From a virus (Duplodnaviria > Heunggongvirae > Uroviricota > Caudoviricetes): 40,953 bases of DNA. The translations under genes were made by a program, and so were the position numbers. The notes beneath the pieces were generated by a model that worked only from the letters and a program-made list of their open reading frames with translations, had not been told where the DNA came from and ran no database searches. The stretch is from IMG/VR virus record IMGVR_UViG_2703718856_000008, positions 1-40,953 of that record, one strand, 5' to 3'. This document shows, piece by piece, positions 4,241 to 9,871 of the stretch (its first letter is position 1; the number at the start of each line of letters is the position of its first letter).

Positions 4241-4735
4241 ATGAATATGATTACTCATAAAGAATTAACCTCTTCACTCAACTACAACCCAGAAACAGGC
4301 GTCTTCACTTGGAAGATAGCTTCTGGTAGCTCCAGTATCGGAAAGGTTGCTGGATTTAAGACGAACTCACAGGCCGACTACTTATCAATACGGATTAATG
4401 GAAAATCGTATCTTTGCCACCGACTTGCTTGGTTTTATATGAAAGGATGCTGGCCTAAAGGGTTAATTGACCATATTAACGGGGTTAAAAATGACAATAG
4501 AATTTCAAACCTAAGAGAAGTAACCAGAGGTCAGAATAAAACCAACAGCGTTTCATCATCCAATACAGGTATAAAAGGAGTTCATCTTCTTAAAGGGAAA
4601 AACACATATAAAGTTATGTTCAAACTAAAAGGTAAGTCTATTTGCCTTGGGTATACCGATGATATTGAGCTGGCCGAATTAATGTCTATTGCATTCAGGG
4701 AAAAATATCATGGCGAGTTTGCTTGTTTTAGATAA
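4241..4735 (+). CDS. Free-standing HNH endonuclease (HNH_3 / AP2-like DNA-binding type)
   Basis: 164 aa; motif SYLCHRLAWFYMKG...IDHINGVKNDNRISNLREVTRGQN typical of phage HNH homing endonucleases; RBS AAGGA upstream; opposite strand to flanking tailspike and ant. Confidence 0.7.
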   Translation: MNMITHKELTSSLNYNPETGVFTWKIASGSSSIGKVAGFKTNSQADYLSIRINGKSYLCHRLAWFYMKGCWPKGLIDHINGVKNDNRISNLREVTRGQNKTNSVSSSNTGIKGVHLLKGKNTYKVMFKLKGKSICLGYTDDIELAELMSIAFREKYHGEFACFR

Positions 4736-4845: not shown

Positions 4846-5748
4846 TCAGTAGTTATGTACTGAAGGAGGTAATTCTTTATTCTTAAGTCTCATCCATGCG
4901 GAAAGATTCGTTGGTCCGTCTGGCTCATTGATATCAACATCTCGTGTGTGATTAATTAAAACGTCTCTCGCCATTCCGATAACATACGAGAACTCATGAC
5001 CGTAGTCGTAGCATCTGCCGGAATAGTTCGATTGAATTTGTTTTAGCGCCGGATACAGTTCGCGGAATAATGCCTGCGAACGGTTGGCATAATCCCATAA
5101 CCATACAAGGCTGTTTGCTTCTTTTGCAGAAAGCTCGTTGGTTTTCTTCTCTTGTTTGCCGATGAACTCACCTTCAAGCACTACCCTGTGGATGTACTCT
5201 ACGGCTTGCGGTATCTGAGATGCATCAAGCTCTTCAATACTGTCCACATTGAAACGCTGATGAATCATTGCATAAGCTTCTGGGTACATTAGATGCTTTT
5301 TGCTGACTAGCATATTTACAGCATCACGAAGCGGAGTCCTGTCATCAACAGATGTTTTCTTACGTGCATTTTCTTCCTTTCCCTTTGTCCAGTAGTCATG
5401 CAGCACAGTAAAGCATTCTTCCTGGTACTGAATAAGTTTATCGCGGATGTCAGCACGAACTTTCTCAGGGTTGATGCTGAACAGCCACCCATTTAACTTC
5501 TTCAAAGGAAGGCAGAGTAACTTACGAAGCTTCCCATCAGCGGCAACCATGTTCATATGAACACAGTTGAATTTGCTAATCTGCTTCATGAGTTTTGTTT
5601 GCTGCGTTGACCAGCTCATTCCAAGGTTTTCAACGATTGGCTTCATCGCAACATATGCAACTCCGACAGCCATGGCGGTGATAATTTGCTGACCGTTGAA
5701 TGGTACGTAAGAGGTGTTCACTGCTTCTAAAATTGCTATACTATTCAT
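4846..5748 (-). CDS. ant: Antirepressor Ant (P22 AR N-terminal domain plus Ant C-terminal domain)
   Basis: ORF extends to 5814 with a GTG start, but the ATG at 5748 with GGAG upstream gives [21 protein letters not shown]... and a 300-aa product matching P22 Ant; sits in the immI context downstream of arc. Confidence 0.8.
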
Positions 5749-5810
5749 GTTGGTTTTTCTCCACGGATTTACTGACAACCGAAGCCCTGACTGTTCCCGC
5801 AGTTGGGGCT

Positions 5811-6032
5811 TCACTGTTTTTGTAAGTCACTGTAGCTATAAAGCCACTGACCACTCATTTTTGATTTGATTGACTCTACTGAATCACGGCAAGGAATGAT
5901 TCCACCTGACATCATTCTGATCTCCGTAAATTCACCACTCCTTATCGACTCAATGCCATTAACGTTAACTAAAGATTTACCTCTACCAAGTGCATTCTCA
6001 TAGCCAATCTCATCAACCTCGATAAACTTCAT
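5811..6032 (-). CDS. Hypothetical 73-aa protein inserted between arc and ant
   Basis: ORF translationally coupled to both neighbours (4-nt overlaps at each end); no recognisable domain. Confidence 0.4.
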
Positions 6033-6181
6033 ACCGTTATCCCCTCTCTCTTCAGGCTGTCCAGCAATCGCTTAATCACTTCCGAGTTAAACGACCGGCA
6101 TTCTTCTTTGGCCTTTCCTGTAATCGCATCTTTTAGCGACTGAGGCATTCTCACCAAAATTCTGCTAACTTCTTTTTCCAT
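6029..6181 (-). CDS. arc: Arc-like ribbon-helix-helix repressor
   Basis: 50 aa from the ATG at 6181 (GGTGG RBS); MPQSLKDAITGKAKEECRSFNSEVIKRLLDSLKREG resembles P22 Arc (RHH fold, NSE motif). Confidence 0.7.
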   Translation of the reverse strand: MEKEVSRILVRMPQSLKDAITGKAKEECRSFNSEVIKRLLDSLKREGITV

Positions 6182-6290
6182 ATCGCCACCACGTGAGTTA
6201 TTGTGAATCACAAACATATCACCGTGACTATATCAAGTCAAAATTTTTTTGAATACACTGTGATATCAATGTGATTATCACGGTGTAAGT
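6182..6290. promoter_or_regulatory. immI divergent promoter/operator region (Pant/Pmnt-like) with three palindromic operator candidates
   Basis: Palindromes TTGTGAATCACAA (6201-6213), TGATATCA (6261-6268) and GTGATTATCAC (6271-6281) between divergent arc and mnt. Confidence 0.55.
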
Positions 6291-6545
6291 ATGACGAAGG
6301 TTAGAGACATAGCCCCATATAGCGTAAGAATGCCAGATAGCCTCAAGCGCGACCTGACCATAAGAGCATCGAAAAACGGACGCTCATTAAATTCAGAAAT
6401 AGTTATGATCTTGCAAGCTGCTATTGATGAAGAAAAATCACCAAGATCAATAGAAGGTTTTGCTCAACAAGAATCTGAAAAATTTAGGGAGGCTCTTCTT
6501 AAGACTCTCAGCAGCATGTACGGAGAAGATAAAAAACCCACCTGA
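6291..6545 (+). CDS. mnt: Mnt-like ribbon-helix-helix repressor
   Basis: 84 aa; RMPDSLKRDLTIRASKNGRSLNSEIVMILQAAI fits the RHH motif of P22 Mnt (83 aa); transcribed divergently from arc/ant. Confidence 0.75.
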   Translation: MTKVRDIAPYSVRMPDSLKRDLTIRASKNGRSLNSEIVMILQAAIDEEKSPRSIEGFAQQESEKFREALLKTLSSMYGEDKKPT

Positions 6546-6558
6546 CGGTGGGTTTTAT
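6531..6558. terminator. Bidirectional intrinsic terminator between mnt and the convergent toxin-like gene
   Basis: AAAAAA-CCCACC-TGAC-GGTGGG-TTTTATT; hairpin with an A-run on one side and a T-run on the other; overlaps both stop codons. Confidence 0.55.
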
Positions 6559-6977
6559 TAGTGCTTGTATAGGTTGAACTCTCTATCAAGCCATATAACA
6601 AAAAATGTCGATCCAAGACGATAACCAACCATGGCTTTCAAATCATCAAATCTAAAAGCCAAGAAATGATCTACGTCTTCCGTTATATGACTGGGGATAC
6701 CTGCTTTAATTGCACCCCTTGCAATCTTCTCAAATCCAAGCTTATGCCTACCTTGCTGCTTAATATCTGCCCATGTTAGTTGACTTAATCTGTATAATTT
6801 ATCAGCTAAGCCAGCTTTCTCATCTTTTTGGCATTTCGTTATGCAGTGAGAGCTTTGGATGTAACAGAATGAAAATTTCGGTTTCTTTTGATCTGAATTC
6901 CCCCCTGACTGCGGCCCTAACTTTAACTTACCTGTAGATTCAGCAGGGGGGATAATCCTTTTAGATTTTCTTGCCAT
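6558..6977 (-). CDS. Hypothetical protein, candidate toxin partner of the upstream Panacea-domain protein
   Basis: 139 aa from the ATG at 6977, 4 nt after the upstream stop; basic low-complexity N-terminus, conserved-looking C-terminus (HFLAFRFDDLKAMVGYRLGSTFFVIWLDREFNLYKH); the ORF could also start at the TTG at 7052; function is inferred from context only. Confidence 0.4.
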   Translation of the reverse strand: MARKSKRIIPPAESTGKLKLGPQSGGNSDQKKPKFSFCYIQSSHCITKCQKDEKAGLADKLYRLSQLTWADIKQQGRHKLGFEKIARGAIKAGIPSHITEDVDHFLAFRFDDLKAMVGYRLGSTFFVIWLDREFNLYKH

Positions 6978-6981
6978 CTCG

Positions 6982-7431
6982 TTAGTTAATCCGAGTTGCA
7001 AAGTACTCTGCCATCTCCTTAGAACTAATTTCAGAACCACCAACACCCTCAATATAGTTTGATCTCCATGGTGACTCTTCGTGTGTCATGTTCCTCAGTT
7101 TCCAGGCAGAAAATTGCCCAAAAACATCCCAGACTTCTTCTAATAGCTCTAACTGTTCTTCGCTGAATTTTTCAGCATCAAAAGACTCTGGAGAAGGGAT
7201 AGCACCATTACCATATTGTTTATAACGGTGATAAAGCTCAGGGACAACAGGGCCATGCATCCAAGCTTCCATCTTATTCTGAAAAAGAGGCTCGCCAAGC
7301 AACGCCAATGAAAAACCCTGAGCATAGTAAACAAGCTTTTGTAATTTTAAATTAGAGATTGCGTCACCGCTATCCTCGTCACACCGCGACAGGAAGTAGT
7401 CGGCGACATCAAAACAAGTAAGCATGAACAC
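6982..7431 (-). CDS. Panacea (DUF4065) domain protein, putative antitoxin (GepA/SocA-like)
   Basis: 149 aa; SNLKLQKLVYYAQGFSLALLGEPLFQNKMEAWMHGPVVPELYHRYKQYG matches the DUF4065/Panacea signature (KLQKL-YYAQ ... W-HGPV-LY). Confidence 0.6.
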   Translation of the reverse strand: MFMLTCFDVADYFLSRCDEDSGDAISNLKLQKLVYYAQGFSLALLGEPLFQNKMEAWMHGPVVPELYHRYKQYGNGAIPSPESFDAEKFSEEQLELLEEVWDVFGQFSAWKLRNMTHEESPWRSNYIEGVGGSEISSKEMAEYFATRIN

Positions 7432-7799
7432 ACCTCCATCTTGATAGCCACAGCTAAGTATCCAACTATGTCAAATGTCATTTAATACTATAACAAAGCT
7501 ATCAGCAATCCTTCGGAGGCTAACTTACAACCACTTTAGCGACATGTTTAAACCATTACGTTTCACATTTACTGCATTTTCGCCGAAGTTACCTATAAGG
7601 TAATGTCACATTTCCTGCAAGTTTCATGCAATGTTGAAAAGTGAGCTATTCACTTTTCTATGACACCAAACACCAAAAATAGCACTTTTTGCTAAATCAT
7701 TCGTCCAAGTTGTGGATGGTTTGTCGTTGACACGTTTTCACACACCACTCCACCAATAAAGTATCATCTGGTATCCTGAGCAAAACTAAGGAGGTTGGT

Positions 7800-7988
7800 G
7801 TGAAGAAAAAATTTGTAAACGTTGCAAAGTGCGCAATTTTTATATTTTTTATGACCTTTTACGGATTTAGTGCCGGAGAAGGTTTCGATCGTGATGCCAA
7901 TGCATTCAGTTTCTTTTGTCTGTCTATAGTGGTCATAATTGTATGGGTGGAATTAAAGCAAACATTGTTTCATGTGCTAGGGAAATAA
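7800..7988 (+). CDS. Small hydrophobic (two predicted TM segments) membrane protein
   Basis: 62 aa, GTG start 5 nt after a perfect AAGGAGG RBS (7788-7794); hydrophobic stretches AIFIFFMTFYGF and FFCLSIVVIIVWV; lone plus-strand gene in a 570-bp AT-rich gap. Confidence 0.45.
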   Translation: MKKKFVNVAKCAIFIFFMTFYGFSAGEGFDRDANAFSFFCLSIVVIIVWVELKQTLFHVLGK

Positions 7989-8005: not shown

Positions 8006-9871
8006 TCACTGCTGTGTTGCCTCAGTGGCAAGCAGCGGTCTGATGGCATTTGCAGCGTTACTTAATGCTCTTTCATAGGCTGGCGTTCCTGCTTTGGTGT
8101 TTGCCAGACGTAAGAGCGCATTCCTGGCCATAGGGCTTTCATAAACCCTCGACATAAGGCCAATCCCTGTTTCCCCAGCCAATAGCGCGCCTCCGGTTTT
8201 TAGGTTACCAATAACCCTTACCAAAGGCGAGAGTGTCATGCCAGTCTTCGTCACAACATTAGCCTCAGATGCTCTTTTGGTAGCATCGAGAATAGATAAC
8301 ATCCCCTCTATCTCTTTTCCGTTCTTCCCACCAAATACAGTTTTAAACACCTGACCATTTGCTTGTTTTTGCAGCTTGCCAAGCTCGGTCATCATTTTCT
8401 GAGGGCTGTCACCTACCTTGTCAGCTATTTTGCTGATATATGCCGCCCTTAGCATGTCTTTACCTTTTTGATCGAGTTTCCCGTACAATCGAGCTATATC
8501 TGACCCATATTGTCCATACACAATGGTATTTACAGCCTCGGGAGTTAAATCTCCTTTGTTTAGAACGTTTTTAAGGCGCGTTTGAGTTGCATGTGTTGCC
8601 ATTTTTGCATAATCAGCTTTTCCCGCTCTCCATGCTGAAGCATCTTTTGGGCTAAGTCCTTTCGCTATAGATTTACTAAGGCTATTGGTTAGCGAGTTAT
8701 AGACCCTGTCGACCATTGTTTGCGACATTGATGGCAGAACTGTACGATCGCCTTTTACGTCAATGCGGAACTGAGTTCTCAGCTTATCAAGTAACTCAAA
8801 GGCATCATCTCCATTTGTTATCTCCTGAATGGCATTCTTATAATCATTAAGCGCAGAAATGGTCTGGGTGTCAGAAACACCTTTAAGTTTCCCAAGTTCG
8901 TTTACTGCTCCGTCGATAGCTCTTATGGCGCCACTTGTATCAACTGGCTTTCCAACCATTCTTCCTGACAGGCTGTTTAGTTTTGACTTGGCTAACGATT
9001 TTTCCCTTGCAACGCCTGACTTTAGACTATCAACGACTACAGATGGATCGTAGTCGCCGTATTTTTCGGTGAAGCGATTAACAAGCTTGGTTCTGGCATC
9101 CTGCTGTGCGGCTCTCATTGGTCCAGTACCAGCTATGACTCCTTCTGAGTAACCCTGCAGTTGATTGCCAAGTTTTGTTTTTGGAGGAACTACATCCGAT
9201 GTCATAACTGGTACATCTGCCGCAGCGGCACGCTTGAGCAATTGCTGATCTGCTGGTGATATTTCGCCACGAACAGCAGTAATTCCACGCCCTATTCCCT
9301 TTGCTGCTGCGGAAAGAACCCCCTGAGCGGCAAGGTTAACTCCGGCATTTTTAGCTGCATTTTGTGCGAAATCGCCTTTCTGATTTGCGGCCTCTGCCAG
9401 TGATCCAATAGCCATGCTTCCTGCCGTTCCAACTCCTGGAACTAAATACCCGCCAATTGTTTCTCCAGCTTGCGCATAAGGGTCTGTTGGTCGATCTACT
9501 GGACGATAGACATCGTCCAAAACCTTGGGGCCACCAAGCCCCTGGCTGATTGCATTAATCAGACTTGCGCCACCCTGCAATACGTCAAATGGTATGTTTA
9601 CCAGACCGCGACCAGCCTGCTCTGCAATTTGCCCTGCACTTTGACCACCAGTGAGCCAATCGCCAGCTTGTTGCATCAATGATGGTTCTTCTTTCTGCTG
9701 CTGAGGCGGAGGGTATGCTGCATAAAACTGATCTCTTGCTTCAGCCCATTTGTCACCAGCCTTAGGGGCAACAACCTCATCAAAATATTGCGCTTGAGCC
9801 TGTGCTTTCTGTTCTTCAGTTAACGCCTGATACTGTGGAGAGGCGATAACATCTTTCCATGCTTTAGCCAT
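8006..9871 (-). CDS. Ejection (injection) protein, P22 gp16-like
   Basis: 621 aa, last of three ejection genes in the P22 order 7-20-16; Gly/Ala-rich. Confidence 0.8.
   Translation of the reverse strand: MAKAWKDVIASPQYQALTEEQKAQAQAQYFDEVVAPKAGDKWAEARDQFYAAYPPPQQQKEEPSLMQQAGDWLTGGQSAGQIAEQAGRGLVNIPFDVLQGGASLINAISQGLGGPKVLDDVYRPVDRPTDPYAQAGETIGGYLVPGVGTAGSMAIGSLAEAANQKGDFAQNAAKNAGVNLAAQGVLSAAAKGIGRGITAVRGEISPADQQLLKRAAAADVPVMTSDVVPPKTKLGNQLQGYSEGVIAGTGPMRAAQQDARTKLVNRFTEKYGDYDPSVVVDSLKSGVAREKSLAKSKLNSLSGRMVGKPVDTSGAIRAIDGAVNELGKLKGVSDTQTISALNDYKNAIQEITNGDDAFELLDKLRTQFRIDVKGDRTVLPSMSQTMVDRVYNSLTNSLSKSIAKGLSPKDASAWRAGKADYAKMATHATQTRLKNVLNKGDLTPEAVNTIVYGQYGSDIARLYGKLDQKGKDMLRAAYISKIADKVGDSPQKMMTELGKLQKQANGQVFKTVFGGKNGKEIEGMLSILDATKRASEANVVTKTGMTLSPLVRVIGNLKTGGALLAGETGIGLMSRVYESPMARNALLRLANTKAGTPAYERALSNAANAIRPLLATEATQQ

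Follow-up and report, generated by a model that had tools for sequence, protein, structure and literature searches.

What does a pair of minus-strand genes between the DNA transfer gene and mnt contribute to a P22-like prophage? The window (the whole 40,953-nt stretch of DNA analysed here) is, judged by its gene layout, a P22-like (Lederbergvirus-type) prophage, and annotations of E. coli STEC346 and of Salmonella phage vB_SemP_Emek (Emek below) show the same layout. An earlier note on this DNA had described the pair as a Panacea-domain toxin-antitoxin (TA)-like cassette in the slot of the P22 gene sieA, and had suggested that the second gene is a candidate toxin and that the two together may act in abortive infection. 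The cassette and its neighbors are as follows.

4846..5814: ant
5749..5815: sar antisense RNA (Rfam, 87.7 bits)
6029..6217: arc
6291..6545, plus strand: mnt (Mnt/Arc-family protein), convergent to the cassette
6558..6977, minus strand: panT-like partner gene (Kurata cluster T1), ATG start, 139 aa
6946..6951, minus strand: G6/C6 homopolymer run at partner codons 9-11, a +1 frameshift site in some E. coli isolates
6982..7425, minus strand: panA, encoding a stand-alone Panacea (DUF4065) protein of 147 aa from ATG 7425
7800..7988, plus strand: 62-aa hydrophobic ORF with a strong Shine-Dalgarno (SD) sequence (phrog_21338)
8006..9871, same strand as the cassette: gp16-like DNA transfer protein (phrog_770, E 1e-242)

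On the P22 map, sieA and orf59a lie between gene 16 and mnt, both running in the direction of mnt and opposite to gene 16. The cassette is co-directional with gene 16, so it lies antiparallel to P22 sieA, and the place and orientation of sieA are taken here by the 62-aa ORF at 7800..7988. The proposed "sieA slot" was therefore right as to the region (gene 16-mnt) but wrong as to the strand. Homology to SieA was considered and rejected, as BLASTP failed to align the two even at E<=100. SieA resides in the inner membrane and prevents the injection of DNA (PMC10883804), whereas the cassette, on the opposite strand of the same variable region, encodes two soluble-looking proteins.

The content of the gene 16-mnt interval differed among related elements. 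Emek and phiv205-1 carry the same cassette allele as the window, EC.P3 and E212 carry an allele of ~83% identity in the same interval, and UPF_BP1 has two unrelated plus-strand genes there. From these comparisons we conclude that the interval is a site of cargo exchange, and the cassette illustrates defence-type cargo swapping in this region of P22-like phages. Alignment of window segment 6200-8000 to Emek, in which query positions 330-1609 formed a single block, set the limits of the exchangeable module, and a terminator scan located a hairpin close to its mnt-proximal end.

6529..7808, no strand assigned: exchangeable module, a block at 99.9% identity to phage vB_SemP_Emek
6533..6556, no strand assigned: GC-rich terminator hairpin AAAACCCACC-GTCA-GGTGGGTTTT, flanked by an A-run and a T-run

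This hairpin shares nucleotides with the stop codon of mnt and is 2 nt away from that of the partner gene, and its counterpart in phage Emek is annotated as a rho-independent terminator. It is a convergent terminator serving the cassette on the minus strand and mnt on the plus strand, in agreement with the bidirectional terminator common to the pair and mnt that had been noticed earlier.

The product of panA matched the Pfam family PF13274 (SocA_Panacea) with E 8.1e-25 and 88.4 bits against a cutoff of 25.7, the match spanning profile positions 1-112 of 113; it also matched phrog_1281. Pfam revealed no domain in the protein in addition to Panacea, leaving it without a DNA-binding domain, and a search against the PADLOC models gave zero matches. 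A longer reading of the same frame (6982..7431) starts at a GTG, encodes 149 aa and contains the motifs KLQKLVYYAQ...WMHGPVVPELY. However, the GGAGG SD sequence at 7437-7433 is 7 nt before ATG 7425 and just 1 nt from GTG 7431, and because of this difference in spacing we preferred the ATG. Judged on that spacing, the true panA start is almost certainly ATG 7425, two codons inside the GTG reading. RefSeq calls the gene at 444 nt from the same ATG (WP_032219532.1, "Panacea domain-containing protein"), and the product is 100% identical to orf149 of phage vB_SemP_Emek (YP_006560565.1). The 149-aa Panacea ORF of the earlier note thus kept its domain, PF13274 scoring above the gathering score in the HMM search on which that assignment had been staked, but not its start.

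The partner gene begins with ATG 6977, 4 nt past the panA stop codon, and the 139-aa ORF with a basic N-terminus that had been reported at that distance downstream was confirmed at 6558..6977 on the minus strand. We regard this ORF as a real gene because its homologs are numerous: one search recovered 180, and a second, at E<=1e-3, recovered 1508 representatives of clusters built at 50% identity. The best 150 of these 1508 representatives were nearly all single-domain proteins of about 130-146 aa, with a few shorter ones, and no PanA-partner fusion protein was present among them. The family consensus is a length of 135-145 aa with a start at ATG. The partner is 100% identical to Emek orf161 (YP_006560566.1) over the last 139 residues of the latter. 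Its residues 1-32 make up a basic disordered tail, and residues 33-139 make up a BECR/RelE-like core, putatively an RNase. In three isolates the partner gene was inactivated by a frameshift while the adjacent panA was intact.

The fold of the partner had been called unknown, a description that no longer holds. We modeled the protein with AlphaFold2 from an alignment of 34 diverse homologs and obtained a mean pLDDT of 85.5 and a pTM of 0.73, with low confidence confined to the tail at residues 1-32. The modeled core was compact, with the order strand, helix, helix, four strands, and it displayed the two helices on a four- to five-stranded antiparallel sheet that define the RelE-type alpha/beta fold. 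A Foldseek search placed YoeB, YafQ, HigB and RelE at the top of the ranking, although the matches were weak (best E 0.036), and no significant match was obtained against the BFVD viral predicted structures. In the model, then, the core of the partner has a RelE/YoeB/YafQ/HigB-type (BECR) fold.

At the level of sequence, this resemblance was not apparent. None of the 34 family members belonged to a Pfam family, the family profile matched none of the PDB chain sequences at E<=10, and hhalign comparisons of the family with E. coli YoeB and YafQ were not significant, so that across Pfam and PDB the partner had no sequence-level match to the curated RelE, ParE, YoeB, YafQ or HigB families. A match to the NCBIfam "MAG6450 family" (E 0.05, with no useful literature attached) was set aside. 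The profile and structure searches that had been suggested as a check on the partner therefore returned a RelE-type fold, along with the NsnC homology described below, but no curated toxin family by sequence.

Among 35 partner sequences with a mean identity of 39%, residues H78, E83, K84, R109, R120, D131, Y137 and the C-terminal H139 were conserved in at least 90%, and the conserved polar residues fell on the expected strands and the C-terminal tail of the model. YoeB uses the set Glu46/Arg65/His83/Tyr84, and YafQ and HigB have a catalytic histidine at the C-terminus. By analogy, His78, Glu83, Arg109, Tyr137 and His139 of the partner resemble the Glu-Arg-His-Tyr and His-Arg-His catalytic sets of these RNases; the putative catalytic residues were assigned from conservation and secondary-structure position rather than by superposition.

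A closer relative of the partner was found among defence proteins. All 34 of the 34 family members matched the PADLOC model NsnC, the sole PADLOC family matched, with a best E of 1.9e-10; for the partner of the window itself, residues 31-135 aligned to positions 178-279 of the 284-position model (E 4.3e-6). NsnC belongs to Menshen, a validated antiphage system reportedly described by Millman et al. in 2022. A 2025 analysis presents the C-terminal PB-BECR1 domain of NsnC as a BECR RNase nearest to YafQ with a His-Arg-His triad, and suggests that it acts as the effector of Menshen (PMC12065111). The partner and NsnC thus have in common a BECR-fold putative RNase near YafQ-type toxins and conserved His/Arg/His residues. 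In contrast to NsnC, the partner is a stand-alone protein paired with Panacea and is devoid of the N-terminal inactive-PIN (inPIN) domain, and no NsnA (ParB/DUF262) or NsnB (ABC ATPase) gene neighbors the cassette. We considered the cassette as a Menshen system and rejected this assignment, since NsnA, NsnB and inPIN are absent and the similarity to the NsnC model is confined to its C-terminal third. The basic tail of the partner is conserved and lies outside the NsnC-homologous core, which makes it a candidate handle for PanA.

The partner also departs in several respects from the ribosome-dependent mRNA endonucleases RelE, YoeB, YafQ and HigB. Besides the lack of detectable sequence similarity, it is ~50 residues longer than RelE-type toxins and bears a basic disordered N-terminal tail, it has a Panacea protein as its mate in place of RelB, YefM, DinJ or HigA, and a protein identical to it was not toxic on over-expression (see below).

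The earlier note had named conservation of the pair as a check. Taking one genome per species, we collected 39 partner loci from Proteobacteria, Bacteroidota, Cyanobacteria, Firmicutes, Acidobacteria, Gemmatimonadota, Actinobacteria, Synergistetes and Fibrobacteres. A PanA gene was located directly upstream of the partner in 38 of the 39 loci. In 36 of them a PanA homolog (phmmer E 3e-72 to 7e-33) ended a few nt before the partner start on the same strand; the remaining three comprised two loci with PanA upstream of a disrupted partner and one without PanA. Six further loci contained the pair. Partner homologs led to an Aeromonas P2-like prophage, an acidobacterial chromosome and a Solidesulfovibrio prophage, and PanA homologs led to prophages of Serratia, Yersinia and Pseudomonas in which the partner was directly downstream. 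The partner ORF had been left uncalled in the annotation of the Yersinia and Pseudomonas loci. The pairwise divergences of PanA and partner were correlated (Mantel r 0.65, a value reached by 0 of 2000 permutations), and the elements hosting the pair included P22-like, P2-like and siphovirus-like prophages. On this comparative evidence, we conclude that panA and the partner gene have been passed on and have diverged as a unit in many phyla, for the most part as cargo of prophages, and the expectation of a conserved pair was borne out.

The sequence upstream of panA is summarized as follows.

7426..7799, minus strand: 374-nt non-coding region upstream of panA, with the SD sequence at 7437-7433 and a TTGACA at 7474-7469

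The TTGACA at 7474-7469 is conserved, but inspection by hand did not reveal a convincing -10 element to accompany it, and a scan of the sequence upstream of panA found no full sigma-70 consensus promoter. The 368-nt upstream region folded somewhat better than shuffled sequences, a mild effect with z -2.4 on the minus strand and -1.6 on the plus strand, and contained no Rfam match.

This arrangement raises the possibility that the cassette is made from late read-through transcripts and functions in the lytic cycle, in which case, during lytic growth, a PanA-modulated RNase would cut RNA of the host or of competitors, or else would counter host defence. The cassette shares the strand of gene 16, and no minus-strand terminator lies between 8006 and 7431, which together with the missing consensus promoter would suit such an origin. 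Late transcription in P22 runs on through immI to gene 9, and in prophages of Aeromonas, Serratia and Yersinia the pair is co-oriented within tail-gene clusters. In Pseudomonas, however, it adjoins the cI/Cro immunity genes, and it also occurs on chromosomes with no phage genes nearby, e.g., in Acidobacteria. The gaps of ~370-520 nt upstream of the pair are of the size usually seen in morons that carry a promoter of their own, and the Panacea literature favors roles in TA or defence. We therefore consider a lytic-cycle function quite improbable.

A search of the literature showed that the cassette is already known: the identical pair was catalogued in 2022, and it counts as a candidate TA or defence module. 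The Emek pair YP_006560565.1/YP_006560566.1 appears in Dataset S1 of Kurata et al. 2022 as a predicted PanA|PanT pair of cluster T1 (PMC8832971), where the PanA is given as "noNTD", the gap as -62 and the source as "Phage", and Table S1 labels the toxin "mRNase" (PMC8832971). Cluster T1 accounts for 217 of the 1268 rows of Dataset S1, placing it among the two largest toxin clusters (PMC8832971). We equate T1 with the family analysed here because the same Pedobacter strains occur in both sets (our loci L025 and L027 recur in the published T1 list). At the sequence level the window pair does not differ from PanAT T1 at all, and it has the marks of a PanAT pair: a 4-nt gap, co-occurrence in the 38 of 39 loci plus the six further intact loci, and the listing in Dataset S1. 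The candidate pair is thus not new, identical proteins having already been present in the T1 list (PMC8832971). What is new here is the likely 139-aa start, the evidence on fold, the homology to Menshen NsnC and the exact P22-like placement. The link between NsnC and the partner was not found stated in the PanA literature searched, nor did a literature search find a report of phage defence by any T1 PanAT; the Emek-type pair was absent from the NetFlax supplements searched, and a 2025 mBio paper on RelE/ParE defence toxins made no mention of Panacea.

The published experiments bear directly on whether the partner is a toxin. Emek YP_006560566.1 (gap -62), expressed from pBAD33 with a strong SD sequence in E. 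coli BW25113, was scored "not toxic", and so was the near-identical partner WP_077635758.1 of E. coli MOD1 (gap -20) in the same strain (PMC8832971). In contrast, the T1 protein WP_074844970.1 of Clostridium cadaveris (gap -1) was toxic in E. coli, and its cognate PanA gave no rescue; the Emek T1 pair has the status of predicted rather than validated (PMC8832971). The candidate toxin of the earlier note is supported by its BECR fold and NsnC homology, but against it stands the "not toxic" score of the identical protein in E. coli BW25113. Non-toxicity of the protein when expressed alone had been named in advance as a result that would count against the proposal, and formally this is what PMC8832971 reports, with the caveat that the constructs were N-terminally extended.

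This caveat concerns the start codons. The gap of -62 corresponds to the 161-aa annotation of the Emek partner, which starts at a TTG and adds 22 N-terminal residues, and the gap of -20 fits a TTG located 24 nt before the ATG, adding 8 residues to give a 147-aa form that is common in databases. We infer that WP_077635758.1 is this 147-aa form. Apparently, then, both non-toxic constructs began at mis-annotated upstream TTG codons and produced extended forms rather than the native 139-aa protein. The extended starts and the toxic C. cadaveris member weaken the published non-toxicity but do not cancel it.

Could the cassette nevertheless be a classical type II TA module acting in addiction or stabilisation? 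The native partner would then be constitutively toxic and PanA would bind and neutralise it stoichiometrically, the toxin would be freed once the prophage was lost or PanA was degraded, and the published non-toxicity would be an artefact of the N-terminal extensions. The tested constructs, at 161 aa and presumably 147 aa, did exceed the family consensus of 135-145 aa, and among the tested T1 members the toxic one alone had a short overlap (gap -1); however, an extension of 8 residues is unlikely to abolish activity, and both constructs retain the native internal start. The position of the antitoxin gene before its partner, with a 4-nt gap of the kind usual in translational coupling, and the RelE-superfamily fold of the partner fit a classical module, as do the three isolates with a frameshifted partner and an intact panA, decay in this direction being what one would expect of a toxin. 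Yet PanA did not rescue the cells in the sole toxic case, it has no DNA-binding domain for the usual type II autoregulation, and an integrated prophage has no obvious need of an addiction module. On balance we judge a classical module unlikely, while taking it seriously.

The Panacea domain itself suggested another mechanism. SocA, of the type VI system SocAB of Caulobacter, is the founding Panacea protein, and the domain is common to it and the panA product, whose best NCBIfam match was SocA_antitoxin (NF047745; E 1.5e-19, 70.4 bits). PanA might by this analogy be a proteolytic adaptor delivering the partner to ClpXP, with harm arising only when the partner accumulates. The match of 70.4 bits is, however, far under the equivalog cutoff of 190, and the partner is BECR-folded and unrelated to SocB, on which grounds we rejected equivalence to SocAB. 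The validated PanAT pairs behave as type II systems in that they form stable complexes, and the partner over-expressed alone was not toxic. A SocAB-like mechanism is very improbable here.

The reading that we favor, to which we give about an even chance of being correct, is that the cassette is a PanAT T1 module carried as a moron in the gene 16-immI region, and that it serves prophage-encoded defence through a latent RNase gated by PanA. The partner would be an RNase, most likely one that cuts mRNA or other translation-related RNA. PanA would bind the partner directly, possibly via the basic disordered N-terminal tail, and hold it latent; a cue such as phage infection, acting through PanA, would release or activate the RNase; and translation would stop in the infected lysogen, protecting the prophage-carrying population. 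If we speculate purely from this scheme, the function of the cassette could be abortive infection. Stand-alone Panacea domains are known to neutralise directly via the unstructured N-terminus of the toxin, and the authors of that work proposed the Panacea domain as a sensor (PMC10440598). We favored a latent, trigger-dependent effector over a constitutive toxin because the identical protein was non-toxic alone, and we ranked a latent PanA-gated effector first because the effector of Menshen, a defence system with several components that depends on a trigger, is the nearest characterised relative.

Several observations count against this favored reading. The non-toxicity of the identical and near-identical partners could equally mean that the partner is not a toxin, and the absence of rescue by the cognate PanA in the sole toxic T1 case does not sit easily with a PanA-gated RNase. 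The lack of a sequence-level match to RelE, YoeB or YafQ, the weak Foldseek E-values, the lack of an identified promoter for expression from the prophage and the lack of a PADLOC match for PanA also weigh on that side.

A broader proposal would extend the latent-effector reading to the whole cluster: T1 proteins may be latent BECR RNase effectors of the NsnC lineage, harmless alone and switched on by a phage-sensing Panacea mate, rather than classical toxins. Within T1, the cassette stands for the prophages of E. coli and Salmonella. We offer this proposal tentatively, as somewhat doubtful. If it is true, it would give the Panacea domain a demonstrated role as a sensor, it would account for the failure of the commonest PanA partners in toxicity assays, and RNase-based superinfection immunity would join the gene 16-immI cargo of P22-like phages.

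As a discovery the cassette adds little, since the PanAT catalogue already contains the identical pair, which has been bench-tested once. The TTG-extended constructs, the homology to the NsnC effector and the presence of the pair in a tractable P22-like prophage of E. coli and Salmonella are reasons to revisit T1; in such a prophage, isogenic lysogens and the classic P22 toolset could be used to test Panacea as a phage sensor. The remaining interest lies in what the large, predicted T1 cluster does, in the NsnC link and in the start-codon problem in the published constructs. Of 5426 complete E. coli genomes, 48 contained the cassette, and it was also found in many E. coli and Salmonella contigs.

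The partner gene, the ORF directly downstream of the Panacea-domain gene panA, has been annotated in public records at four different lengths (139, 147, 160 and 161 aa), all from identical DNA spanning window positions 6558-7052. The longer annotations take their starts at TTG codons that lie within panA, and these extended forms appear to be those used in the published toxicity tests of Kurata et al. (2022). Elsewhere the gene has been missed altogether. When we examined the Yersinia (loci L054/L055) and Pseudomonas (loci L056/L057) contigs, we found that the gene finder had left the T1 partner ORF directly 3′ of panA uncalled, producing a seeming gap of ~550 nt. A tblastn search together with ORF listing recovered an intact 140-aa partner homologue in these Yersinia and Pseudomonas contigs. 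The panA-partner pair will be under-counted by neighbourhood surveys that rest on gene calls.

Two features lie between the start of panA and gene 16, the DNA transfer protein gene:

7432-7799, 368-nt non-coding stretch upstream of panA

7800-7988, plus strand, 62-aa strongly hydrophobic ORF with a GTG start and an AGGAGG Shine-Dalgarno sequence (phrog_21338, E 4e-45)

The non-coding stretch is near-identical in phage EC.P3, whose panA and partner genes nevertheless show only ~83% identity to those in the window. Two readings account for this contrast: a boundary of recombination where panA starts, or a regulatory region under constraint. The stretch folds slightly better than shuffled sequence (minus strand, z -2.4), and near 7645-7667 it includes a perfect hairpin of 9 bp.

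The 62-aa ORF is convergent with gene 16, matching both the position and the orientation of sieA in P22. Comparison of its predicted product with SieA gave no significant sequence similarity. The DNA of this ORF is also present, at 98-99% identity, in phages JEP4 and UPF_BP1, where it is unannotated. Its product could be a small exclusion-type membrane protein.

Three further features were identified in and around the immI region:

5749-5815, plus strand, sar, the antisense RNA of immI in P22 (full-length match to Rfam RF00262, 87.7 bits)

5811-6032, minus strand, 73-aa ORF between arc and ant, equivalent to "orf73" of phage Emek (phrog_11805, E 6e-53)

4241-4735, plus strand, 164-aa HNH endonuclease (phrog_99, E 1e-60)

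The sar match confirms that the arc-ant regulatory unit is intact. P22 lacks the 73-aa ORF, its space there being taken up by sar and the leader of ant. In the window, the ORF and the sar region overlap on opposite strands. The HNH gene, located between the tailspike-side gene and ant and lying on the strand opposite to its neighbours, probably represents the insertion of a free-standing homing endonuclease.
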